Below are positions 7,471 through 63,390 of a stretch of DNA of 64,000 nucleotides, in pieces. The notes under the pieces are model-generated. The model was not told the DNA's origin and did not search any database. It worked only from the letters and a program-made list of their open reading frames with translations. Made by a program: the position numbers and the translations under genes. Position 1 is the first letter of the stretch. Each line of letters opens with the position of its first letter. The DNA is taken from the IMG/VR virus record IMGVR_UViG_3300025896_000021; one strand, written 5' to 3'. Source of the stretch: a virus (lineage: Duplodnaviria > Heunggongvirae > Uroviricota > Caudoviricetes).

Positions 7471-8192
7471 GAGGGTTCGTGATAATGGCTCAGAATACTG
7501 AGACAACTGATTACGTAAAGTGCGCAGAAGCATTATCTAAAAGTATCAAGCAAGCGATGCCTGACGCCAATGTGACTATCATTACTGAGTTACCATTAAA
7601 ACTTGACGGCTTTGCTAACGATTGGCAGGTATACAATGCTAGCCCCTACGAGTATACAATCAAACTAGAAGCTGATATGTTTATCCCTACTGACATAAGC
7701 TACTGGTGGGATGTGTTGCAGGATAGAGACTTGGTGTTGTGTACGACTATACGAAACTTCAAAGGAGAAGTATCAGACGTGATGGCTTATCGTCAATTCA
7801 TCACTGACAATGAATTGCCCAACATCTACAATGCTATCACTTACTTTAAGAAATCAAGTATTGCTCAACAATTCTTTAACTTAGTCAATGACATCTTCAC
7901 AAACTGGGAAGACTACAAGAAAATCTTAAAGTGCGATATTAATGAACCAGCGTCTACTGATTGGGTATACGCCATTGCTTCACACTTGATGGGCGTAGAA
8001 CAGACAACGCTCCCCACGTTCACTCAAATGAGCATGGTGCATATGAAGCAACACATTAATGGATTGATAACAGAAGATTGGACTAAAGAACTAGTAACTG
8101 AGTTCCATGCTGACGTGCTGAAAGTCAACACAATCGTACAAAGATACCCCTTTCATTATTATGTCAAAGAATTTGTTGAGGTAATAGTATGA
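7467..8192 (+). CDS. Glycosyltransferase-like paralog
   Basis: SPYEYTIKLEAD parallels the upstream gene, with ExD in place of DxD; shared YFKK motif. Confidence 0.55.
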   Translation: MRGFVIMAQNTETTDYVKCAEALSKSIKQAMPDANVTIITELPLKLDGFANDWQVYNASPYEYTIKLEADMFIPTDISYWWDVLQDRDLVLCTTIRNFKGEVSDVMAYRQFITDNELPNIYNAITYFKKSSIAQQFFNLVNDIFTNWEDYKKILKCDINEPASTDWVYAIASHLMGVEQTTLPTFTQMSMVHMKQHINGLITEDWTKELVTEFHADVLKVNTIVQRYPFHYYVKEFVEVIV

Positions 8193-8536
8193 CCGATGAC
8201 ACATCACAACTCTTTTGGGAAGTTAAAGCACCCGAATCAGTAGAGTTTAGGTTGTATTATGATGACAAAGGTAGTATAATAACTTATACCTGTGAGAAGC
8301 TACCGGGTAACTATCTTGTAATTGATGCCCAAGTGTTTGCTGAATGCAGACCTGATCTTACTGTAGTGAACGGCATGCTAGTCAAACTTGTACCTGAAGT
8401 GTTTCTTTCATTACTAGCTAAGTCTGATTCAGGAACTAAGTGTGCAAGCGATGATGTTTCGATAATAGTATCGGATGACTACGAAGGTAATATCACACAT
8501 TGGGACCTAAAAAGATATGAGTACAAATATAGTTGA
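8189..8536 (+). CDS. Hypothetical protein
   Basis: Coupled ORF in operon. Confidence 0.65.
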   Translation: MTDDTSQLFWEVKAPESVEFRLYYDDKGSIITYTCEKLPGNYLVIDAQVFAECRPDLTVVNGMLVKLVPEVFLSLLAKSDSGTKCASDDVSIIVSDDYEGNITHWDLKRYEYKYS

Positions 8537-17618: not shown

Positions 17619-17703
17619 CTTCTTCAAGAATCTCATGCGTGAGTACAAGTATCGAAAACGCCTAAAAGAAATGCGTAAAAAAGATCCATTCATCTACAAA
17701 TGA
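17605..17703 (+). CDS. Small basic protein (32 aa, ...YRKRLKEMRKKDPFIYK)
   Basis: Not in ORF track; ATGA overlap with carbamoyltransferase. Confidence 0.65.
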   Translation: MFVINFFKNLMREYKYRKRLKEMRKKDPFIYK

Positions 17704-19193
17704 ATTACATAGGGATTAGCTCTGGGTTCCATGATGCTGCCATCAGTGTCGTGAATAGTTACGGGGAAATTATATTTGCAGGGCATAGTGAACGGTACAG
17801 TAACTTTAAACATGACTCGCACTTATGTTTGCCTCTAATCACTGATGCAAAATCATATATGGATAGTGATGACTATGAAGTTCATTACTATGAAAGACCT
17901 TGGCTCAAGTACTTACGTCAACTACGTGCAGGAGAACCCACTTGCATTGCAAACATATCAGTCAAAAATGTTATCGGTAGAAGTACTATTAAATATCAGT
18001 TAGGTAACAAGACTGTTCATACTCATAATCATCATTTAAGTCATGCTGCTGCTGGCTTTCAAACCAGTCCCTTTGATGACGCTACTGTTGTTATCATTGA
18101 TGCCATTGGAGAGTTTGACACTATCAGTATATGGGATGCTTCATATGATGAGGACACCGGACGTGCTGAATATAAAAAGGTATGGGGACAAACTTATCCT
18201 GACAGTATAGGACTATTCTATAGTGCAATGACTGCTAGAGTGGGACTACGCCCACTAGATGAAGAATATATTTTAATGGGTATGGCAGCATATGGCCAGT
18301 CACGTCACTCGGGTGAAATCTATGACACTCTTGTTGCATCAGCAAGAGAGTTACGATTCGATAAAAACTTGCACATAGGAGTACCCGACAACTTCTTAGA
18401 GGGTGCAAACAACATGGATATTGCTACTAGTACACAAATTGTTACAGAGCATTTGATCCAGCATGTCATTAGTAAGGCCCGTATGTTAGGCAAGAGTAAG
18501 AATCTTGTATATGGTGGCGGTGTAGCACTAAACTGTTTAGCTAATAGATTACTAGGAAATTACTATGATAACATTTGGATCATGCCAAATCCGGGCGATG
18601 CAGGCTCTAGTCTCGGTGCAGCATGTCTTGGGTACAAGTATAAAGTTAATTGGAATGATGCTTATCTTGGGCATGACATTGTTGGGAACTATCCTGTTAA
18701 TAGTTTACTTGATGTGTTACTTACTGACCGCATCGTTGGTGTCGCATCAGGTCGCGCAGAGTTCGGCCCGAGAGCATTGGGAAACAGAAGTCTCCTTGCA
18801 GACCCTAGAGGTAGTGAAATTAAGGATAAAGTAAATGAAATCAAACGTAGACAAAAATTCAGACCATTTGCGCCGGTCATTCTGGAAGAGTATGCTGATA
18901 ATTATTTCAGCATGCCTGATGGCTGGGATAATAGTAGGTATATGCAAGTCATCAGTACTTGTAGGCATCCTGACTTATTTCCTGCTATCGTGCATCATGA
19001 TGGGACTAGTCGTGTCCAAACTGTCCCAAAAGATGGAAGCGGAATTAGAGAACTCCTTGAAAAGTGGTTCGTCTTGACAGGATGCCCTATGCTGCTTAAC
19101 ACTAGCTTGAATGTTAGGGGTGAACCAATGGTTAATGATCGGGCAGATGCAGACAGATTTGAACAATTGTATGGGGTCAAGGTTTTATCGTGA
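17700..19193 (+). CDS. NodU/CmcH/TobZ-family carbamoyltransferase
   Basis: HDAA, HHLSHAA, GGVALNC, EFGPRALGNRS, RPFAP, LLNTSLN. Confidence 0.93.
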   Translation: MNYIGISSGFHDAAISVVNSYGEIIFAGHSERYSNFKHDSHLCLPLITDAKSYMDSDDYEVHYYERPWLKYLRQLRAGEPTCIANISVKNVIGRSTIKYQLGNKTVHTHNHHLSHAAAGFQTSPFDDATVVIIDAIGEFDTISIWDASYDEDTGRAEYKKVWGQTYPDSIGLFYSAMTARVGLRPLDEEYILMGMAAYGQSRHSGEIYDTLVASARELRFDKNLHIGVPDNFLEGANNMDIATSTQIVTEHLIQHVISKARMLGKSKNLVYGGGVALNCLANRLLGNYYDNIWIMPNPGDAGSSLGAACLGYKYKVNWNDAYLGHDIVGNYPVNSLLDVLLTDRIVGVASGRAEFGPRALGNRSLLADPRGSEIKDKVNEIKRRQKFRPFAPVILEEYADNYFSMPDGWDNSRYMQVISTCRHPDLFPAIVHHDGTSRVQTVPKDGSGIRELLEKWFVLTGCPMLLNTSLNVRGEPMVNDRADADRFEQLYGVKVLS

Positions 19194-36277: not shown

Positions 36278-36684
36278 TGTATATTGGAACAAGTTTGGGT
36301 AGATGTTTGCGTAGCATTCTTATAGGTGAAGTGTCCGAGGAAGATGTATTATTGATCATCACTCGTACTATGACATTCGATACAGAGCGTTTTATCGGTG
36401 TAGTAAAAATGTATTACCAAGAAGGTAACTACACTTCACGTAATTCAACTGACTATGATCTTTCAGTCAAGCCATGGGAAGAAGTGGAAGCACTTGCTAA
36501 CCGATTGTATACTACTGGCAAGATTCATCAGCCTAGGAACTTTGTAAATTTGGGTAATCAATTTATACATCCTGAATTGAGCAATGATGTTTGGGTTGAA
36601 GTAGCACCTAAAAGTCGTAATTCTACACCTGCGGTTGTTCAGGCATACGATCAATATAAAATGCTTGATGCGTTGACAAAATGA
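36274..36684 (+). CDS. Hypothetical protein
   Basis: ATGA overlap. Confidence 0.7.
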   Translation: MMYIGTSLGRCLRSILIGEVSEEDVLLIITRTMTFDTERFIGVVKMYYQEGNYTSRNSTDYDLSVKPWEEVEALANRLYTTGKIHQPRNFVNLGNQFIHPELSNDVWVEVAPKSRNSTPAVVQAYDQYKMLDALTK

Positions 36685-36929
36685 ATGTAAATGTACTGGC
36701 TTGGTATGCTACCCGCAAGCTAGCATCCTCTCCACCTCACTTTGTAAAGTGCAATACTCCCTTGTCGGATAAATCACTACTTTGGGTAATGGCTAAATTA
36801 CAAGGTAGATATTCATTATCGGACAGAGACGAAGACGATGATTTTGTGTTTTTAACCACACATGATATTTCCTTTGAAGATCCAGCAGAAGCAATGCTGT
36901 ATGAGTTACGCTGGTCGGGTACAAAATAA
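36681..36929 (+). CDS. Isolated member of the LRW small-protein family
   Basis: Ends FEDPAEAMLYELRWSGTK. Confidence 0.65.
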   Translation: MNVNVLAWYATRKLASSPPHFVKCNTPLSDKSLLWVMAKLQGRYSLSDRDEDDDFVFLTTHDISFEDPAEAMLYELRWSGTK

Positions 36930-53847: not shown

Positions 53848-54924
53848 ATGATGACAAAAAAGCCTAACACTAAAGAACAATTAGTTGATTACTTGCTAAA
53901 ATACATAAGTTTGGGCACTTACGATAAAAAGTTTGTTAGCAATATATTGCAACTTAACATTACTACTGGTAAATCTGTTACCACTAATCAAGCAGCCCTG
54001 TTAGATAAAATCATTCTGCGATATCATCGGCAACTAGCTAAAGCAGAAATAAATAGCATTGACATGGTTAACCTTTCGTGGTCACTGCCACCGATTGAAA
54101 GTTCACCTATCTATACTGAGGCACATGTGTCTGTTATGGATGATACCACGCTCATTATTCATAGTCCCTACAAAAAGGATTTTGTAAAGGAACTTAAGCA
54201 ATATGATTACATGAACTGGGACCGCGACAATAAATTATGGTCCACTATAGCATCGGAGCACACACTAAAGCAAGTGTTGGAAGTTGTTAATGCTCACTAT
54301 GATAAAGTAAATTACTGTCCTATAGTACAGCAAGTAGTAGACACTGTGACAGAATACGAAGGTATGCTATACTGGAATCCAACACTAACTCGAATAAAAG
54401 GTAATCTGTACGTAGTTGCTGCAAATGGTCCACTGATGGAAGCGATTACTAATATTCCTTTGGATACTGATTATCACACATTAGCTAGACTAAGCAGAAT
54501 GGGAATCAGAATTGAGCCGGCACTTATTAGTGCAGTACATGATGAGTTGGGCGGGTCTGACGAAGTGTTTAAGAAACTGATATTTGCAATTGACCATCAA
54601 CCCAAGATTGAAATGTCTAACCAATCTATGATCATAGAACATCTGTTAGATATCAAAGCAGATATCGTGATACTCAACCAGTGGTTTGGTACAAACAAAA
54701 CTTATGTTATGGAATTAGCTAATTTATTGAAAGCAAATAAAATCGAACATAAGATATTAAAAACTAAATCAGGTCTCGGTGAAGTAGTTGACACTGAGTT
54801 AAAGACATATGACATGCCCATAAAACTTAACATAGGAGTGTTCAATACGCACGGATCACTTAAACATATAGCCAAGAATGTACAATTGGTAAACAGCAAC
54901 GAAATCTATATAGAGTATAAATGA
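53848..54924 (+). CDS. Hypothetical protein
   Basis: ORF directly after TTGCAT-N17-TATAAT. Confidence 0.7.
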   Translation: MMTKKPNTKEQLVDYLLKYISLGTYDKKFVSNILQLNITTGKSVTTNQAALLDKIILRYHRQLAKAEINSIDMVNLSWSLPPIESSPIYTEAHVSVMDDTTLIIHSPYKKDFVKELKQYDYMNWDRDNKLWSTIASEHTLKQVLEVVNAHYDKVNYCPIVQQVVDTVTEYEGMLYWNPTLTRIKGNLYVVAANGPLMEAITNIPLDTDYHTLARLSRMGIRIEPALISAVHDELGGSDEVFKKLIFAIDHQPKIEMSNQSMIIEHLLDIKADIVILNQWFGTNKTYVMELANLLKANKIEHKILKTKSGLGEVVDTELKTYDMPIKLNIGVFNTHGSLKHIAKNVQLVNSNEIYIEYK

Positions 54925-56399
54925 AACAATGTAAAATAATCGTCAAAGACGAAGTAAACGTAAAGATAGAGGGCTTGGATCTACCTGATCGTAAGGCTCT
55001 AATGAAACTATTTGAGTTTGATGTACCCGGCGCACGGTATTTGCCAAGTGTCCGACTCGGTAGGTGGAACGGCAAGACTAGCTACTTTAGTCTAGGTGGG
55101 TCAAGTTATATCAACTTGCTTCCCGAGATTCTTCCTGTACTTGAACGTGTCGGTTACGACATTGAGTTAGAAGACACACGGGACTATACAACTACCTTTG
55201 CGTTTACTGAGGTTACTGAGGAAACATTCAAACATAAAGTATGGCCTAAGAATCATCCTATTGCGGGACAACCAATTGTACTGCGTGACTATCAGATTGA
55301 GATTATCAACAACTATCTTAAGAATCCGCAAGCACTGCAAGAAATTGCAACGGGTGCTGGCAAGACACTAATCACTGCTGCACTTAGTTCTGCTATTGAG
55401 CAGTATGGTCGTAGTATTGTTATCGTGCCTAACGTTAGTCTAGTAGGTCAAACCGAAGCTGATTATATTAACTTGGGGCTTGATGTTGGTGTGTACTACG
55501 GCGGCCGCAAAGAGTACAACAAGACGCATACTATTTGCACTTGGCAGTCACTAGGTAACATGCTTAAGAACACTAAAGCAGGAGAAGCAGAAGTTGACAT
55601 TGGCGACTTCTTAGAAGGCGTAGTTTGTGTTATCGTTGACGAGGTTCACCAAGCTAAAGCAGAAGTATTGAAGACATTGCTCACTGGGGCAATGAGTCAG
55701 ATTCCATTACGTTGGGGCTTGACTGGTACTATCCCTAAAGCTAGATTTGAATCAATGTCGTTGACTGTTAGTTTAGGCCCAGTGATTGGTAGTCTAACTG
55801 CTAGTACATTACAAGAGCAAGGTGTGTTGAGTAACTGCCATGTTAACATCCTACAACTACAAGATGGAGTTGAGTTCCCTAACTATCAAACTGAATTAAA
55901 GTACCTAGTTGAGAACAGTCAGCGTATGGATTGTATTGCTTCACGTATCTTTAAGATTAAGGATACAGGTAACACATTGGTCCTTGTTGATAGGATTGAA
56001 GCTGGTAAAATACTACATCTTAAGTTAGAAGAATTAGGTGTACCCGAAGCTGACGTAGTGTTCGTGTCGGGTGGCACTAAGTCTACTACTAGGACTGATC
56101 ATTACGATGACATTGCTACAGCAACTAACAAGATTATTATCGCAACATACGGTGTAGCCGCAGTTGGTATTAATATCCCGCGTATCTTCAACGTAGTGTT
56201 GATTGAACCGGGTAAGAGTTTCGTTCGAGTTATTCAAAGTATCGGACGAGGCATACGTAAAGCAGAAGACAAAGACTTTGTGAATATCTGGGATATCACT
56301 AGTAGTTGTAAGTTCGCTAAACGACATTTGACCCAACGGAAGACATTCTATCGTGATGCCAACTACCCGTTTGACGTTGAAAAAATTAAGTATAAGTGA
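54921..56399 (+). CDS. uvsW: UvsW-like SF2 helicase
   Basis: LRDYQ, ATGAGKT, DEVH, GLTGT, QSIGRGIR. Confidence 0.9.
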   Translation: MKQCKIIVKDEVNVKIEGLDLPDRKALMKLFEFDVPGARYLPSVRLGRWNGKTSYFSLGGSSYINLLPEILPVLERVGYDIELEDTRDYTTTFAFTEVTEETFKHKVWPKNHPIAGQPIVLRDYQIEIINNYLKNPQALQEIATGAGKTLITAALSSAIEQYGRSIVIVPNVSLVGQTEADYINLGLDVGVYYGGRKEYNKTHTICTWQSLGNMLKNTKAGEAEVDIGDFLEGVVCVIVDEVHQAKAEVLKTLLTGAMSQIPLRWGLTGTIPKARFESMSLTVSLGPVIGSLTASTLQEQGVLSNCHVNILQLQDGVEFPNYQTELKYLVENSQRMDCIASRIFKIKDTGNTLVLVDRIEAGKILHLKLEELGVPEADVVFVSGGTKSTTRTDHYDDIATATNKIIIATYGVAAVGINIPRIFNVVLIEPGKSFVRVIQSIGRGIRKAEDKDFVNIWDITSSCKFAKRHLTQRKTFYRDANYPFDVEKIKYK

Positions 56400-56914: not shown

Positions 56915-57511
56915 ATGGCAACTAGAAAAGCAGCAGCACCCGTTGATGAGAAATTTGAGAACATGGACTTTGACTTGTTCAATGCACTAACCGCACTGGA
57001 TAAGAAAGACTATGCTTACATTGACCGACTCACTGACGAACAGCAACGTAAGTTCGTTCCCTACATGATGACGCACTGGATGAGTGCCATCAAAGCTAGC
57101 GGTGATCTTCAAGGCTATTACTTGATGAGCACGAACTATCATGCAAACATTCACTTGTTCAATGAATATGTTAGCAAGCATCCTAAGCTACAATGGCAGA
57201 TGTTATGTGCAGCTAGTCCAGGCATTGGTAAACAATTTCATCAGTGGATACCGCATCTGTCTAGTAAAGTAACACAGCTTAAAGAAACTCCTAAAGAAAA
57301 AGATATTCGTGACTACTTTACTAAAATCTATCCTAAGGTAAGTGCTGATGATATCAAAGAAATCAGTGAAGCATTTGTAACTACACACAAGAAGAAAGTA
57401 TACTTGGCAAACAAGTATCCTAACTTAAAACAAACAGATATTGAAACATTATCGGAGCTAGTAACAGATGCTGAAATTAAACAATATGAAAAAGATAGTG
57501 GCAACAGTTGA
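56915..57511 (+). CDS. Possible clamp-loader small subunit (gp62-like)
   Basis: F-x-PY-x-x-x-x-WMS...HPKLQW...HQWI pattern. Confidence 0.45.
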   Translation: MATRKAAAPVDEKFENMDFDLFNALTALDKKDYAYIDRLTDEQQRKFVPYMMTHWMSAIKASGDLQGYYLMSTNYHANIHLFNEYVSKHPKLQWQMLCAASPGIGKQFHQWIPHLSSKVTQLKETPKEKDIRDYFTKIYPKVSADDIKEISEAFVTTHKKKVYLANKYPNLKQTDIETLSELVTDAEIKQYEKDSGNS

Positions 57512-58190
57512 GCCAAAGCATACCTGTGAGTTTTGTCATCGTGAATTTGTGCGAGAACGAACATTAATCAGTCATCTATGTGAACAGAAGCAAAGATGGC
57601 TGAACAAAGATATCAAAGGTAACCGACTAGGCTTTCAGTGTTGGTTGCAGTTCTATACCAAGAACAGCATGAACCGAACTAAGAATAAGACCTATGAAGA
57701 ATTTATTAAGTCTGCATACTACACTGCCTTTGTAAAGTTTGGTACTTATTGTGGTGAAGTCAATGTAGTCAATGTAAGCCGCTTTGTTGATTGGTTACTC
57801 AAAGAAAATATCAAGCTAGACAACTGGCATAGTGATTCAGTTTATACTACCTTCTTGCAGGATTACCTTCGCAAAGAGGATCCGTTTGATGCGATACATC
57901 GTGGCATTGAGCATTCTATAGTATTAGCCAAAGCAGCAAACATTCAGTCACACGACATATTACGATTTGGGAATGTGAACAAAATCTGCTATGCCATAAC
58001 AACGGGCAAGATAAGTCCATGGATGTTGTATCAGAGCAACAGTGGTACCCATTTTCTAGATACTTTAAATCCAGACCATGTTAAAATGATCATAGAGTAC
58101 ATAGACCCGGAACAGTGGGCAATCAAATTTAAACGAGATCCTGAAGTTGCTAAACAAATCAAAGAGTTATTGGGGGCGGGAGGATATTAA
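57486..58190 (+). CDS. Hypothetical protein with N-terminal zinc finger
   Basis: CEFC...HLC; start uncertain. Confidence 0.65.
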   Translation: MKKIVATVEPKHTCEFCHREFVRERTLISHLCEQKQRWLNKDIKGNRLGFQCWLQFYTKNSMNRTKNKTYEEFIKSAYYTAFVKFGTYCGEVNVVNVSRFVDWLLKENIKLDNWHSDSVYTTFLQDYLRKEDPFDAIHRGIEHSIVLAKAANIQSHDILRFGNVNKICYAITTGKISPWMLYQSNSGTHFLDTLNPDHVKMIIEYIDPEQWAIKFKRDPEVAKQIKELLGAGGY

Positions 58191-58365
58191 GCATATAGCA
58201 GAGATTCCTTATACTAGAGTGCAACAGCATGAGGTGTTTGAATGGTTGCTAGTCAATTTAGGATTGCCCGGACACGATTATTATGTCAGACATGATTCTA
58301 CTACGTTAGCAGTACATTTTACAACAGAACAAAATTACATTTGGTTTATATTGAGGTGGTCGTAA
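58147..58365 (+). CDS. LRW-family small protein 1
   Basis: Ends FTTEQNYIWFILRWS; start uncertain. Confidence 0.6.
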   Translation: MLNKSKSYWGREDIKHIAEIPYTRVQQHEVFEWLLVNLGLPGHDYYVRHDSTTLAVHFTTEQNYIWFILRWS

Positions 58366-58658
58366 TGAACGAAAAAATGATTCACGAATTTGTACAACGC
58401 TACGGAGCCAGGGTAGATTACCAACATGGTCGTAGCAGCTTTGAAACCTATAGCAGGTCAATGAATTATTACGATGACCGTAAAAGTGTAGTAGATATTG
58501 AACTATCCAGGCAAGAATTTGAGCATTTAGTTGAAGCAGATCACCATGCAGAAGTTGACTATCGTGTTAGAAGCGAAGAAGCACGCCTGCGCAGTAAATA
58601 CCCTGCGTTGGAAACAGCATATAGCAAATACAAAATGTTATTGGAGCTATACAAATGA
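58365..58658 (+). CDS. Small hypothetical protein (YPAL-x-x-AY-x-x-YKML type)
   Basis: TAATG overlap; GAGGTG RBS. Confidence 0.75.
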   Translation: MNEKMIHEFVQRYGARVDYQHGRSSFETYSRSMNYYDDRKSVVDIELSRQEFEHLVEADHHAEVDYRVRSEEARLRSKYPALETAYSKYKMLLELYK

Positions 58659-59014
58659 ACGATCTGCTACCTTATCAACACGCACTATATGATAAACTGC
58701 AAGCAGGTGGATTTAAGCAAGGAGAACTAGTTGTCTTTGCCGCTGGTCGTCAAACCGGCAAGAGTATGCTCTATAAGACTATGCTTAATGAAATGTATGG
58801 ATCAATGACGAAACAACCTATTTTCTCGGTAAATGGCAAAGCAGAAGTAGATGGTGCAACTTGGTATACTGTACACTGCAATAGAGATATCAGTACATGG
58901 TTGCGTAATCAACCTAAAGAGTGGCATTATGAAGCATTAGCACACGGATGGAGTGGTTGTCAATTTGACATTCACGAAAAACTTTACACAATGTTGATAT
59001 TGCGATGGAGCTAA
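58655..59014 (+). CDS. LRW-family protein with N-terminal Walker A fragment
   Basis: LLPYQ...GGFKQGELVVFAAGRQTGKS; ends MLILRWS. Confidence 0.75.
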   Translation: MNDLLPYQHALYDKLQAGGFKQGELVVFAAGRQTGKSMLYKTMLNEMYGSMTKQPIFSVNGKAEVDGATWYTVHCNRDISTWLRNQPKEWHYEALAHGWSGCQFDIHEKLYTMLILRWS

Positions 59015-59253
59015 AACTAAGTGAAGGCAGAGTCTCGGGGTCACGATACTATACAGTTGATCCTAACCCAAATTGGGATCCTTATTGGTACAATCAAGGT
59101 TGGTTTGATATGGAAATTTGGTGTCTGACGCAATTTGGTCCAACTCCGAATGATGGTGTGTGGACACCCGGTGCTCGTTGGTATATGAACAATAGAAAAT
59201 TTTGGTTCCATAATGAAGCAGACTTATCTTGGTTTATATTGAGGTGGTCATGA
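59005..59253 (+). CDS. LRW-family small protein
   Basis: WCLTQFGP...FHNEADLSWFILRWS. Confidence 0.8.
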   Translation: MELKLSEGRVSGSRYYTVDPNPNWDPYWYNQGWFDMEIWCLTQFGPTPNDGVWTPGARWYMNNRKFWFHNEADLSWFILRWS

Positions 59254-59483
59254 GTAATACAGCAAGCTGGACAACATTCGGCAAGGATCGTTATCATCTC
59301 AACGGTGAGATGGAACGCTGGTGCCTAGACAATGTTGGGAATGGTGGTTGGACTTATAGTACTCCCGAAACTTGGGAAGGTATGGGTGGCAAAGTTTGGA
59401 TTATGCACAGCATGTTTGGTAACACTACCTTTGTATTTAAAGAGTCCAAACACTTAGCTTGGTTTATGTTGAGGTGGGAATGA
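59250..59483 (+). CDS. LRW-family small protein
   Basis: WCLDNVG...FKESKHLAWFMLRWE. Confidence 0.8.
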   Translation: MSNTASWTTFGKDRYHLNGEMERWCLDNVGNGGWTYSTPETWEGMGGKVWIMHSMFGNTTFVFKESKHLAWFMLRWE

Positions 59484-59698
59484 GTTCACTTGTAAGAATA
59501 AAAAACAAGAATGCAATAGCAGCAATGGATATAGTAAGAGAGTTGCGTGAGAAGGGGTATGTACAGGGAATTGATTTTGATTTTAATTACTATCATCAAG
59601 AATCCGATGATCCACAGGACATCACCGAGCAGAGACATACCTTATTCACTTTTTACAAAGAGGGGCTGGCAACATGGTTCAGTTTAAAGTACCTATGA
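59480..59698 (+). CDS. LRW-family small protein (LKY variant)
   Basis: FYKEGLATWFSLKYL. Confidence 0.75.
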   Translation: MSSLVRIKNKNAIAAMDIVRELREKGYVQGIDFDFNYYHQESDDPQDITEQRHTLFTFYKEGLATWFSLKYL

Positions 59699-59952
59699 CA
59701 TTAGAAGATGAGTTGGCGGCGACGGCGGGTAAGATCATGGCAGATGAAATTGACTGGGAAATTTTAGCTAACCTATTAGTTCAATCAGGCTGGTTTATGG
59801 TAGACTTAGATCATTACAGAGACCGTTACCAAAGTATTGACATTGAAACATGGATTGATGAAAACTGCAAGGGCAAATACAAGAAACACAGTAGAACATT
59901 CGTGTTTGAGAAGAAAGAAGATGCAGCTTGGTTTAAGTTAAGGTGGCTATGA
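59695..59952 (+). CDS. LRW-family protein with N-terminal gp23-like helix
   Basis: EDELAATAGKIMADEIDWEIL; ends FEKKEDAAWFKLRWL. Confidence 0.75.
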   Translation: MTLEDELAATAGKIMADEIDWEILANLLVQSGWFMVDLDHYRDRYQSIDIETWIDENCKGKYKKHSRTFVFEKKEDAAWFKLRWL

Positions 59953-60158
59953 GAGTATTGAAGAAAGAACTGTGGCCTTGCAAGGTAGAACTGGATCTAG
60001 ATCAAAGTCAGACCAAGTTGATAGAAATAGAAACTTGGCTAGGCGAACATTATGGTCCTTTAAAGAATCGCTGGAATGTGGTTTATCAATGGGACCATAC
60101 TGTATTTTATTTTCGGCAAGGCACTGATGCTACCATGTTTTCATTGAGGTGGGTATGA
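59949..60158 (+). CDS. LRW-family small protein
   Basis: WLGEHYG...FRQGTDATMFSLRWV. Confidence 0.78.
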   Translation: MRVLKKELWPCKVELDLDQSQTKLIEIETWLGEHYGPLKNRWNVVYQWDHTVFYFRQGTDATMFSLRWV

Positions 60159-60547
60159 TAGAATATATTAAAGACAAGTATTTGACTTGGCGTACTGGTG
60201 TTGATAAACAAACACGTGATCATCGTAAGTGGTATGATGAAACTGTTGTTCAACGTGCTAGTACGATTGAAAATATGTTTATGAACTTCAAGTACATACT
60301 GCCAGTATCTACGAATATATTTGATTTTTCTGAGCCGTTTGGTTGGTACCCCAACAAAGAATTTAGACAGTATATGTGGCCTAACCGAAAGTTAGATGAC
60401 TGTTCCGTGTATTACTTTGCCCGTGGCTATAGAGATAAGTGGGATGGTAAATTTTATATGAATGACTTGCGGCACGACGAAGACCAAGTGTTTGTAGCAA
60501 CTAACAATGAGGTAGATGCTATGATGATAACATTGAAATATTCATGA
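60155..60547 (+). CDS. LRW-family protein (LKY variant)
   Basis: NNEVDAMMITLKYS. Confidence 0.72.
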   Translation: MIEYIKDKYLTWRTGVDKQTRDHRKWYDETVVQRASTIENMFMNFKYILPVSTNIFDFSEPFGWYPNKEFRQYMWPNRKLDDCSVYYFARGYRDKWDGKFYMNDLRHDEDQVFVATNNEVDAMMITLKYS

Positions 60548-60888
60548 CAATAAGCAATTCCACAATTAATATGATTCGTAAGCAATTGCCAATTCTACTG
60601 GCAAAAGCTATTACAGGCGTGCAACCTATGACAGGCCCGGTTGGGGGACTCTTTAGAATGAAATATACCTATACTCCACAATCAAAGTATAAATTTACCC
60701 GTGCCAACTGGTATGTGGCAGAGTTCAACATTAAAGATTATACTGATGTTGTACATTGGTGTAGGGAACAGTTTGGTCCACATCCTCGTAATCCCGATGC
60801 TTGGAGTCGTTGGGAACACAAGTATGAAGATAAGATTTACTTCCGTGATGAGAAAGATTATGCTTGGTTCATGTTGAGGTGGTCGTGA
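60544..60888 (+). CDS. LRW-family protein with N-terminal major-capsid (Gol-like) fragment
   Basis: MIRKQLPILLAKAITGVQPMTGPVG; ends FRDEKDYAWFMLRWS. Confidence 0.8.
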   Translation: MTISNSTINMIRKQLPILLAKAITGVQPMTGPVGGLFRMKYTYTPQSKYKFTRANWYVAEFNIKDYTDVVHWCREQFGPHPRNPDAWSRWEHKYEDKIYFRDEKDYAWFMLRWS

Positions 60889-61136
60889 GAAAATTAATTC
60901 CAAATAATATAACTGTAACTGAACAGTTTCGTATCCGTACTCAGTTTGTTGGTATGGTTGGAAAATGGAAACAAAGTATTCTTACTACCACCAGCAAGAA
61001 ATATCTAGAGTTAGAGTTACAGTGGTTGGAGCGGGACAGCGGTGTTCGCTGTCATTATACTAACAATGGTGAATTGGTAGGATTTAAGTTAGTTGATGAA
61101 AAAATGTATGCTTGGTTTGTGCTGAGGTGGGCATAA
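60885..61136 (+). CDS. LRW-family small protein
   Basis: GTGA overlap; DEKMYAWFVLRWA. Confidence 0.75.
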   Translation: MRKLIPNNITVTEQFRIRTQFVGMVGKWKQSILTTTSKKYLELELQWLERDSGVRCHYTNNGELVGFKLVDEKMYAWFVLRWA

Positions 61137-61141
61137 GTAAC

Positions 61142-61396
61142 ATGACTATTAAATTTACTAGTACAGAGTGGGTAGGTGCTGAACCAGAAAACACTGACAT
61201 TGTGTTAAGATCAGAAGCAGGGTTAACTGGGAAGTTTACGGATTTTTCTAATGAAGTTTTTCTATGGTGCTTTGATAATGGCATTGAAGCAGATATGGTT
61301 GGTAAAAAATATAATAGTGATGACAATAGTGATTATAGTCTATGGAGAATTGAAAATGAACAGCACAGAACTTGGTTTATATTGAGGTGGGCATGA
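61142..61396 (+). CDS. LRW-family small protein
   Basis: WCFDNG...ENEQHRTWFILRWA. Confidence 0.78.
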   Translation: MTIKFTSTEWVGAEPENTDIVLRSEAGLTGKFTDFSNEVFLWCFDNGIEADMVGKKYNSDDNSDYSLWRIENEQHRTWFILRWA

Positions 61397-61605
61397 TCAA
61401 AAGACAATATAACAGATGGCGCTACGGCGACAATAAATCTTACTTTGATAACTTTGTTGATGCACATGGACCAGATGAAGTCATTGAAGATAAATTATTA
61501 TTCTATAAAGCAACTATAGGTAAAAGTAAGAATAAAAATCACAAACTAAATGTCAAGTGGCATGATCCAAAAATGTATGTGGTGTTTGTATTGAGGTGGG
61601 CATGA
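61393..61605 (+). CDS. LRW-family small protein
   Basis: DPKMYVVFVLRWA. Confidence 0.75.
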   Translation: MIKRQYNRWRYGDNKSYFDNFVDAHGPDEVIEDKLLFYKATIGKSKNKNHKLNVKWHDPKMYVVFVLRWA

Positions 61606-61790
61606 AATTACTGGAAGACTACTCAGTATCATTGAGCGCAGACAGATGGATCAAAATAAAAGAACAATTAACAAAAGTTGAATCTAATTCATTGGTGTCT
61701 ATTACTTGGACAGGTCCGTTTGAAAGAACCAGAATATTACGATTTAAATCTGAGAATGATGCATTGATATTTGTATTGAGGTGGTCGTGA
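61602..61790 (+). CDS. LRW-family small protein
   Basis: FKSENDALIFVLRWS. Confidence 0.75.
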   Translation: MKLLEDYSVSLSADRWIKIKEQLTKVESNSLVSITWTGPFERTRILRFKSENDALIFVLRWS

Positions 61791-62071
61791 AGATAGTATG
61801 GGGCAGAAGCATAGGATTTAATATGAGCCTTAACGGTATGGAAAAATTTGGGTCAGGATTTAATCCAATGGAAATTACAATTATCAAAGACGGAGCAGGT
61901 TGCTATCCGTGGACAGAACATTTTGCATGGCTACCAGTTAAAACAATTACAGGTCTACGTGCTTGGGGTGTTAAAGTTTACAAGCGTAGAGTTTGGATGG
62001 TATGGGGTACAGGCTTTCATATGGAACCAGAAACTCAATACGCAACATTGTTTGAGATTCTGCAAGAGTGA
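61787..62071 (+). CDS. Small hypothetical protein (FAWLPV type)
   Basis: GTGA overlap; no LRW end. Confidence 0.7.
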   Translation: MKIVWGRSIGFNMSLNGMEKFGSGFNPMEITIIKDGAGCYPWTEHFAWLPVKTITGLRAWGVKVYKRRVWMVWGTGFHMEPETQYATLFEILQE

Positions 62072-62331
62072 AAAAGCCTAAACCAAAGAAGCCAAAAGCT
62101 AAGATACCCAAAGATGCACTAATAGTTGACTATGGATCGCATCGTGTGATCCTACCTTATAAACACCCATTAGACTTGTATAATAACAAAGAACTTGATA
62201 CAATAAGTGAATGGTGTAAGAAAACTCTCCCAATAGACTCCTGGCGTATCAACAGAGGCTCTTGGCCCGGTCACATCTACTTCTTAAAAGAAAGTTATGT
62301 CACACTGTTTTTATTGATGTGGGCAAAATAA
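62068..62331 (+). CDS. LRW-family small protein (LMW variant)
   Basis: WCKKT...FLKESYVTLFLLMWAK. Confidence 0.72.
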   Translation: MKKPKPKKPKAKIPKDALIVDYGSHRVILPYKHPLDLYNNKELDTISEWCKKTLPIDSWRINRGSWPGHIYFLKESYVTLFLLMWAK

Positions 62332-62609
62332 TGGCAATAAAAAATATATACCCAATGGGTACATTCTCTCAGAAAATTGACTACGAAGAAGTTATCGTAG
62401 ATGCCGCGCCTAGATCGTATGGTAAGAAAACTATATACGTATATCTTTGCAAAGACTTGAAAGAAGATCCTAGAACTATTGTAAAATGGTGCAGAAGAAA
62501 CTTCGGTGACAGAGGCAATGGCTGGGACTTTATGTTGACTTCCGGAAATATCACGATAGAGATATGGAATGACAAATTAAAATTTATGTATGAAATGTGG
62601 AAGACATGA
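62331..62609 (+). CDS. LRW-family small protein (divergent)
   Basis: WCRRNFGDRGNGWDF...FMYEMWKT. Confidence 0.7.
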   Translation: MAIKNIYPMGTFSQKIDYEEVIVDAAPRSYGKKTIYVYLCKDLKEDPRTIVKWCRRNFGDRGNGWDFMLTSGNITIEIWNDKLKFMYEMWKT

Positions 62610-62830
62610 TTCAGAACAAAAAACACGAAAAGTTAAACACTTGGCGCATATTAAAAGACTTAGAACCTGTACAATCACTAAAATGTAGATTGAATTGGCA
62701 TCTATGGACTAACTGGGAAGTATGGGATGGTGAATGGTCTAGAGGTAATGTTAGTCACGCTACCTGCTACTGCGCTAGATGTGGTATGCCTAGAACTGAA
62801 GCACCCTACAGTAAAAGTAAAAAAGGATAA
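62606..62830 (+). CDS. Small Cys/His zinc-binding-like protein
   Basis: CRLNWH...CARCG. Confidence 0.65.
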   Translation: MIQNKKHEKLNTWRILKDLEPVQSLKCRLNWHLWTNWEVWDGEWSRGNVSHATCYCARCGMPRTEAPYSKSKKG

Positions 62831-62832
62831 TT

Positions 62833-63390
62833 ATGGCAGATATAATGATAGACATTGAATCACTAGATACAACACCAGATTGCGTGATTCTTACAATTGG
62901 TGCAGTATTGTTTGACCCTCGTGGTCAGGGCATTATTGACAAGATTGAGATTAGACCTACGATTGAGGATCAAACAGAAATACATAACAGGAGTATTAAT
63001 GAAGACACACTACGATGGTGGAGTACACAAAGTCCAGCAGCACTTGAAGAAGCTATGGGAGACACCGGACGCGTATCATTTGCAGACTGTATGGAGACGC
63101 TATACAAGTTTTGTTGGAATCATAATAATGTTTGGAGCAACGGTGCTTCCTTTGACGTGGTCGTCATGGAACACGCTTGGAGACAAACATCAACTAGACC
63201 AAATCCAATACCCTGGCCCTTCTATAAAGTCAGAGACACTAGAACTTTGTATGAAGTGACTGGTGTAAGTTTGAAAGACGGTAACTATGCGACTACCCAC
63301 AAAGCTGTTGAAGATGCCGAACGACAAGCTATAATACTACAGAAGGGCTATTTGAAGTTAATTAAAGCAGGGCTAGTGCAACCTAAATGA
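62833..63390 (+). CDS. DEDDh 3'-5' exonuclease (DexA/Rv2179c-like)
   Basis: MIDIESL, WSNGASFD, RDTRT, HKAVEDA. Confidence 0.88.
   Translation: MADIMIDIESLDTTPDCVILTIGAVLFDPRGQGIIDKIEIRPTIEDQTEIHNRSINEDTLRWWSTQSPAALEEAMGDTGRVSFADCMETLYKFCWNHNNVWSNGASFDVVVMEHAWRQTSTRPNPIPWPFYKVRDTRTLYEVTGVSLKDGNYATTHKAVEDAERQAIILQKGYLKLIKAGLVQPK

Follow-up and report, generated by a model that had tools for sequence, protein, structure and literature searches.

In a 64,000-nucleotide (nt) stretch of DNA from a virus of the class Caudoviricetes (IMG/VR record IMGVR_UViG_3300025896_000021; the whole stretch is called the window below), small plus-strand genes standing head to tail end again and again in the same peptide, leucine-arginine-tryptophan (L-R-W) one residue ahead of the stop codon, and the codons of this peptide appear to double as the start signal of the gene that follows. 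We consider it likely that these junctions are dual-coded, as peptide and as start signal, and that the joint also serves gene exchange. The anatomy of the junctions, the bias and covariation of their codons, and the breakpoints among related phages were observed directly; that initiation at the junctions actually depends on a Shine-Dalgarno (SD) sequence, or that translation of adjoining genes is coupled, we infer from these patterns, and crossover within the motif is likewise the presumed mechanism of rearrangement.

The array extends from ∼58150 to 62830 and holds ∼17 small genes with hardly any intergenic DNA; with gene calls based on open reading frames, neighbours overlap by 4, 1 or 10 nt at 15 of the 17 junctions. 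Eleven array genes and one isolated gene (36681–36929) have an LRW-type ending (a hydrophobic residue, any residue, L-R-W, one residue, stop), and three more array genes carry decayed tails, L-K-Y in two and L-M-W in one. As an earlier note on this DNA had counted, TTGAGGTGG (TTG AGG TGG) occurs exactly eight times in the window, on the plus strand only, between 58351 and 61784 (starting at 58351, 59239, 59469, 60144, 60874, 61382, 61591, and 61776), where shuffled sequence yielded a mean of 0.36 copies and a maximum of two, and there are two one-base variants, TTAAGGTGG at 59938 and CTGAGGTGG at 61122. All copies of TTGAGGTGG are in frame as L-R-W, one codon ahead of the stop of a small plus-strand gene. 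A repeat finder retrieved the junction as families of 7–9 copies, and the longest identity between copies is the 21 nt already reported (TTGGTTTATATTGAGGTGGTC, in the tails at 58365 and 59253). The distance from AGG to the next start is 5 nt in eight junctions (six ATGA and two GTGA), 8 nt in one (TAATG, 58365), and 14 nt in one (61142). The same note had described this spacing as short in several copies; because a GAGG 5 nt from the start falls within the 4–9 nt range of the window's other genes, that concern falls. The individual junctions are as follows, with energies for the predicted duplex with a canonical anti-SD where these are given.

58351 to 58367, plus strand: junction 1, TTG AGG TGG TCG TAATG; SD GAGGTGG, next start 58365 (−15.8 kcal/mol).
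59000 to 59008, plus strand: junction of a second type, CGA TGG with an internal ATG at 59005 and without an SD; the only possible start for 59005–59253.
59239 to 59252, plus strand: junction TTGAGGTGGTCATG(A), start 59250 (−14.1 kcal/mol).
59469 to 59482, plus strand: junction TTGAGGTGGGAATG(A), start 59480.
59684 to 59698, plus strand: degenerate junction TTA AAG TAC CTATGA (L-K-Y), ATGA overlap retained and SD lost (−0.9 kcal/mol).
59938 to 59951, plus strand: variant junction TTAAGGTGGCTATG(A), start 59949 (−8.2 kcal/mol).
60144 to 60157, plus strand: junction TTGAGGTGGGTATG(A), start 60155.
60533 to 60547, plus strand: degenerate junction TTG AAA TAT TCATGA (L-K-Y), without an SD (−1.7 kcal/mol).
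60874 to 60887, plus strand: junction TTGAGGTGGTCGTG(A), GTG start 60885.
61122 to 61144, plus strand: variant junction CTGAGGTGGGCATAAGTAACATG, start 61142, 14 nt after AGG.
61382 to 61395, plus strand: junction TTGAGGTGGGCATG(A), start 61393.
61591 to 61604, plus strand: junction TTGAGGTGGGCATG(A), start 61602.
61776 to 61789, plus strand: junction TTGAGGTGGTCGTG(A), GTG start 61787.
62314 to 62333, plus strand: decayed tail TTG ATG TGG GCA AAA TAATG (L-M-W-A-K), without an SD.

We propose that the final four codons and the stop would be read twice, once as protein, forming the end of the C-terminal helix, and once as RNA, forming the initiation or reinitiation signal of the next gene. The junction would exist in two interchangeable states. 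In the first (xxG AGG TGG xxA TGA), an SD of 6–9 nt (GAGGTGG, often GAGGTGGTC) would stand 5 nt ahead of a start codon, ATG or GTG, overlapping the stop; in the second (xxA TGG, with AGA, CGA, or AAA), an ATG would lie inside the motif and the next gene would begin 8 nt before the stop. Ribosomes ending one gene would thus meet either a strong SD with an overlapping start or an upstream ATG, and would then reinitiate. The 3′ end of each family gene would in this way bring the start signal for whichever gene comes next, and therefore a spacer-free array would remain expressed however its genes were rearranged at their borders. The two exceptional codings that the earlier note had listed, TTG CGA TGG at 59000–59008 and TTA CGC TGG in 36681–36929, are both present, and the former appears to be dual-coded in another way, because ATG 59005 is the only start available to 59005–59253. 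This second arrangement, with ATG inside the motif, was also found in relatives (loci L001, L006, L024, and L030).

Codon choice within the tail strongly supports selection at the nucleotide level for an SD sequence. In the window array, 10 of the 11 tail arginine codons are AGG, as compared to 1 of 38 arginine codons in the same LRW genes outside the tail and 6–7% of those in the rest of the window, where CGT makes up 35–37%. A set of ∼155 related phage loci was obtained from IMG/VR with orthologue alignment, and the 335 distinct family tails extracted from it were grouped into 105 clusters (50% identity) to limit pseudo-replication. In these relatives AGG accounts for 171 of 287 tail arginine codons, against a background of 7% and against 8% of 909 arginine codons in the same genes outside the tail, and CGT and CGC together account for only 9 of the 287 (3%, background 47%). 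When clusters are counted instead, 58 of the 84 arginine clusters at 50% identity have AGG as their majority codon. The third base of the preceding leucine codon is G, completing GAGG, in 152 of 167 AGG copies (91%), whereas among the 134 copies whose codon ends in A it is G in just 35 (26%, which is the background level; Fisher 9e-33), and the adjoining phenylalanine codon, examined as a control, is unchanged between the two classes. The position of the next start changes as well: an NTG start (ATG, GTG, or TTG) lies 5–9 nt downstream of AGG in 163 of 168 AGG copies in the relatives, and the in-motif ATG (xxA-TGG) is the sole start in 52 AGA, CGA, or AAA copies and in no AGG copy. In orthologues of one downstream gene the start reads ATGGAGCTA (Met-Glu-Leu) after an A-ending codon and ATGAAG (Met-Lys) after TTGAGGTGGxx. 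The AGG bias and its covariation with the leucine base and the start position thus support the claim that the LRW codons double as the Shine-Dalgarno of the next gene.

The relatives also contain what may be a third junction solution (L081:2070-2090, L083:5270-5290, L087:4340-4360, and similar), in which the arginine codon is AGA, the next start lies 10–14 nt away, and an SD-like core comes from the tryptophan codon and the codon after it (TGG AGT giving GGAG, TGG GGx giving GGGG).

Because the leucine third base and the start position covary with the arginine codon, an SD function is favored over descent, gene conversion, and rare-codon pausing. Identity of the tails could in principle have been inherited from recent duplication or maintained by gene conversion, with no selection on a ribosome-binding site, and the copies are indeed tandem paralogues sharing up to 21 nt. 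However, the paralogues in the array are only 16–37% identical as proteins, no recent duplicates occur in 156 loci, the predominance of AGG extends to clusters less than 50% identical to one another, and neither descent nor conversion alone predicts the covariation with leucine base and start, an effect from which the phenylalanine codon beside the motif is free; we regard this explanation as very improbable. Equally little credence attaches to the proposal that AGG is chosen as a rare, slow codon, or as an internal SD-like pause, that aids folding of the helix or slows termination. AGG is the rarest or second rarest arginine codon in these phages, as this proposal would have it, but nothing in the proposal would lead one to expect the linked G in the leucine codon, the narrow range of start distances, or the replacement of AGG by A-ending codons exactly where ATG sits in the motif, and the isolated family member, whose tail has no gene directly behind it, uses CGC.

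The array junctions appear to carry the strongest SD sequences of the window as judged by predicted duplex energy with the canonical anti-SD. Pairing at the junctions is predicted at −10.4 to −15.8 kcal/mol with this anti-SD, which is assumed for the host, as compared to a median of −4.0 and a best value of −10.7 kcal/mol elsewhere in the window. Of 64 genes outside the array, 22 carry a GGAG, GAGG, or AGGA core 3–10 nt ahead of the start, as against 3.9% of random positions, and the spacing of this core peaks at 5–8 nt. Where a serine codon TCA or TCG follows the tryptophan, pairing extends to nine positions (GAGGTGGTC; −14.1 to −15.8 kcal/mol), as it does at 58351-58362, 59239-59250, 60874-60885, and 61776-61787. 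Among the 104 family representatives that have a single residue after tryptophan, this residue is serine in 60.

An SD-like sequence near a stop codon could instead programme a frameshift, as in prfB, that fuses successive genes into polyproteins, and most junctions do place a strong SD 3–5 nt ahead of TGA. Such a frameshift is scarcely credible here: the downstream gene is read in the −1 frame of its upstream neighbour rather than in the +1 frame, the junctions contain no slippery heptamer or CUU-U site, and each downstream gene is provided with a start codon of its own at a fixed position. A prfB-type programmed +1 frameshift was accordingly rejected on the grounds of frame, start codons, and the missing CUU-U site.

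The eleven LRW genes of the array belong to one large family, consisting of a small alpha/beta domain that ends in a helix with the sequence F-x-L-R-W-x-stop. The family yielded 123 matches in a 90% cluster database, none with a Pfam family or source name, and 1,374 representatives at E ≤0.001 in a larger search among 1.84 billion. The domain is always C-terminal, behind N-terminal extensions of 0 to ∼90 residues. No family for the LRW domain was returned by Pfam and PHROGs scans of ten array proteins. The following members are referred to by name or differ from the rest.

58219 to 58365, plus strand: LRW gene A01, tail WFILRWS, start uncertain.
58655 to 59014, plus strand: LRW gene A03, 119 amino acids (aa), tail LILRWS encoded TTG CGA TGG.
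59005 to 59253, plus strand: LRW gene A04, 82 aa, tail WFILRWS.
36681 to 36929, plus strand: family member standing alone, away from the array, ELRWSGTK encoded with TTA CGC TGG.

An AlphaFold model of 59005–59253 (predicted local distance difference test score, pLDDT, 83) has the order beta-beta-alpha-beta-beta-alpha, with the motif ending the last helix. No solved relative of this A04 model was found in the PDB with Foldseek (best E-value 0.49); VIA-align reached a Z of 5.7 at most, with generic two-layer alpha/beta domains, and a BFVD search returned uncharacterised phage proteins only. The peptide itself is also under selection at the protein level, as the earlier note had supposed, because arginine or lysine followed by tryptophan is kept under AGA, CGA, AAA, and CGC codons, and 137 of the 147 top representatives end in [RK]-W plus 1–3 residues, with exactly one trailing residue in 106. 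The isolated member (36681–36929) has four extra codons after the motif, a 53-nt spacer, and a next gene with its own AGGAG. The start of gene A01 (58147-58365) is ambiguous: no ATG follows the stop of the preceding gene (58190), and the only in-frame options are GTG 58219, without an SD, and TTG 58147, with a 44-nt overlap with the previous gene.

Two further observations concern members of this family. The 114-aa LRW protein encoded at 60544-60888 matches, over its first ∼45 residues, the N-terminus of the T4 major capsid protein (PF07068, 1.5e-9, profile positions 7–51; PHROG 138). Its closest metagenome homologues (L156 and L157) match residues 45–114 only, and the capsid-like piece therefore looks like an added N-terminal module. 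Sinorhizobium phage Phosso (L163:8558-8773) is the closest cultured relative, and three small genes occupy the corresponding slot there. The final one (71 aa) ends in FTHKKDAMEFKLTFL (tail FKLTFL) and has an ATGA overlap with a DnaE-like gene; it is possibly a distant family member that lacks an SD.

Comparison with the related loci indicates that the array occupies a variable slot between conserved genes. We propose that it would be a polycistronic run of ∼17 small accessory genes in a hypervariable slot reaching from a 240-aa gene to an exonuclease gene, the two flanks being as follows.

57468 to 58190, plus strand: conserved gene on the left flank (240 aa, without a Pfam family), where the variable slot begins.
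62833 to 63390, plus strand: conserved right flank gene, DEDDh 3′-5′ exonuclease (Pfam PF16473, 3e-31); the variable slot ends here.

Neither promoter-like sites (29 against 26.8 expected) nor terminator-like sites (5 against 4.5 expected) are in excess within the array, and the genes are therefore probably carried on one transcript. Gene order in the relatives is conserved (helicase, 166-aa, 198-aa, 240-aa, [array], exonuclease, 197-aa), and the 240-aa protein is 54–90% identical across ∼150 related loci, always with a variable array next to it. In 90 loci the slot has 56 configurations, with 0–14 LRW genes in 533–7403 nt; the genes of the array have diverged much further than the flanks, and relatives differ in how these genes are ordered. 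In several loci (L142, L144-L148, and L153) the slot measures just 533–1355 nt and contains no LRW gene. The whole array would thus be dispensable in this phage group.

Breakpoints were sought in comparisons among the metagenome-assembled loci of relatives, with insertions or deletions (indels) taken from locus pairs with at least 88% identical DNA. The earlier note had proposed looking for breakpoints at the motif in related genomes, and these were found, both as one-gene indels and as a swap. In four pairs (L024/L030, L035/L075, L059/L129, and L097/L098) the joint of a one-gene indel lies inside the motif, with 8–27 nt of shared sequence, and a fifth such indel (L083/L085) adjoins the exonuclease gene; of six clean indels within arrays, five are exactly one unit gained or lost. 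L129 represents a deletion, because the cassette it lacks is present in 45 related loci. In L036/L084, unrelated family genes of 74 and 96 aa replace each other between two motif copies in a background 99% identical on both sides, the left crossover falling immediately after TTGAGGTGGGGATGA and the right one in the codons of the C-terminal helix. No near-identical relative of the window's own array was found in the metagenome scan; against L001, the closest locus (86% DNA identity in the flank), homology is lost at 58139 and regained at 58345, at the first motif. Since indels and a swap were seen and no recent tandem duplicates, the expectation that crossover at the motif would delete, duplicate, or swap genes holds for deletion, insertion, and swap and lacks an example for duplication (none in the 156 loci searched).

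The joint of 15–27 nt would, in the mechanism that we propose, most likely provide the short homology for whole-gene deletions, insertions, and swaps between phages. We are somewhat more inclined than not to see in it a recombination substrate, and not merely the place where selection tolerates breakpoints; comparison among the relatives supports this without proving it, and motif-driven crossover and selection for intact genes are inseparable with these data. On the alternative view, the motif would serve as a genuine SD and start signal but have no role in recombination, and the breakpoints at it would reflect the purging of cut genes together with extension of alignments into the motif. Because the genes abut with 4-nt overlaps, every gene border lies at or beside a motif, and slot edges at borders that have no motif act as breakpoints too. 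Yet the one-unit indels share 8–27 nt at the joint, both crossovers of the L036/L084 swap fall in the motif within a nearly identical background, and selection against broken copies should be weak in a slot that holds 0–14 genes, each of them dispensable. On balance we think this alternative rather unlikely.

Several points weigh against dual coding with gene exchange at the joint. The tails are related by descent, and binomial P values consequently overstate their independence, an effect that the cluster-level count and the within-gene control lessen but do not eliminate. The pairing energies presume that the host has a canonical 16S tail, and the SD would appear to be helpful rather than indispensable, because the two L-K-Y junctions and the state-2 junctions do without it. 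With regard to exchange, surviving whole-gene indels in so gene-dense an array must end near gene borders, and breakpoints at the motif are thus expected from selection alone. Moreover, a 165-nt indel (L044/L049), an internal in-frame deletion, lies inside a gene and away from the motif; no recent tandem duplication was found in the 156 loci searched; and, the loci being metagenome assemblies, some may contain chimeras formed at shared sequence.

Near-identical relatives also differ in their conserved flanks, both before the array and beyond the exonuclease, by insertions of 760–930 nt that are not at LRW motifs (L036:6619-7382 vs L084; L091:6351-7269 and 7738-8509 vs L093; L051:5452-6245 vs L069). 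Their size suggests mobile endonuclease-type genes.

We regard the system as a variation on translational coupling and on shuffling of the kind seen with promoter-early stem-loop (PeSL) cassettes, and not as a new kind of system. In coupled gene pairs that overlap as ATGA or TGATG, an intragenic SD usually raises reinitiation (Huber et al. 2019, PMC6728339), and it is known that the stop codon and the codons just before it adapt to the SD (Palleja et al. 2009, PMC2784483). The array, read from its sequence alone, resembles such pairs in having co-directional genes with 4- or 1-nt overlaps, in placing the SD inside the upstream coding sequence 4–11 nt before the start (here GAGGTGG at 5 nt), and in fitting the stop and last codons to the signal; genes overlap at 15 of the 17 array junctions, and 163 of the 168 AGG junctions in relatives have a start 5–9 nt after AGG. 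It differs in that the SD sits in an invariant peptide motif of one paralogous family and so travels with the gene, in that a second state places ATG within the arginine and tryptophan codons, and in that the joint also marks cassette borders.

T4-type phages owe the modular shuffling of their hyperplastic regions to PeSL cassettes (Arbiol et al. 2010, PMC2839356; Comeau et al. 2014, PMC4122927). As there, a short conserved expression signal recurs between small genes, none of them essential, in a hypervariable region with core genes on either side, and the indels and replacements that separate close relatives have their ends in the repeats; the array thus shares with PeSL regions a hyperplastic slot between core genes and breakpoints in a repeated element. 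In contrast, the repeat of the array is coding sequence and translational signal rather than intergenic promoter and terminator, and the array has neither an excess of promoters and terminators nor intergenic DNA. Membership in the PeSL class was rejected for want of the sigma-70-like promoter and the stem-loop terminator. The array is also like integron cassettes in its promoterless small genes of one direction, the repeat at each 3′ end, and the variable content, but its repeat is only 15–27 nt long and is translated. No attC-like inverted repeats were found at the array joints, and no integrase family was found among the scanned genes of the immediate flanks, where helicase and exonuclease are present; on these two counts an integron-like cassette array was rejected.

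The junctions offer a clean natural overlap of constraints, in which one stretch of 9–15 nt would be at once peptide, ribosome-binding site or start codon, and cassette border, and the covariation of arginine codon, leucine third base, and start position may provide a test set for methods that detect selection at synonymous sites. They would also show how a promoterless, spacer-free accessory array stays expressed while its content shuffles. For annotation of these jumbo phages, a start rule follows: ATG inside xxA-TGG, or NTG 5–9 nt after AGG. A more far-reaching and frankly doubtful possibility is that the LRW tail acts as a portable 'coupler-linker', the RNA role fixing the peptide one residue from the C-terminus in more than 1,300 clusters, and the joint serving jumbo phages as a substrate for exchange of single genes, possibly through excised circles. 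If that were true, a translation signal would lie behind a protein motif as well as behind the expansion of the family that carries it.

The window itself derives from a large (jumbo) phage that belongs to the T4 superfamily. The UvsW-like helicase encoded in it (54921–56399) shares ∼50% identity with the helicases of three jumbo phages, Phosso, Atu_ph07, and CBB, and no close cultured relative was found by megablast with the array or by tblastn with one family member. At some distance from the array, positions 17700–19193 encode a 497-aa protein with both carbamoyltransferase domains (PF02543 and PF16861; E 2e-34 and 2e-47, respectively), an unusual enzyme for a phage.

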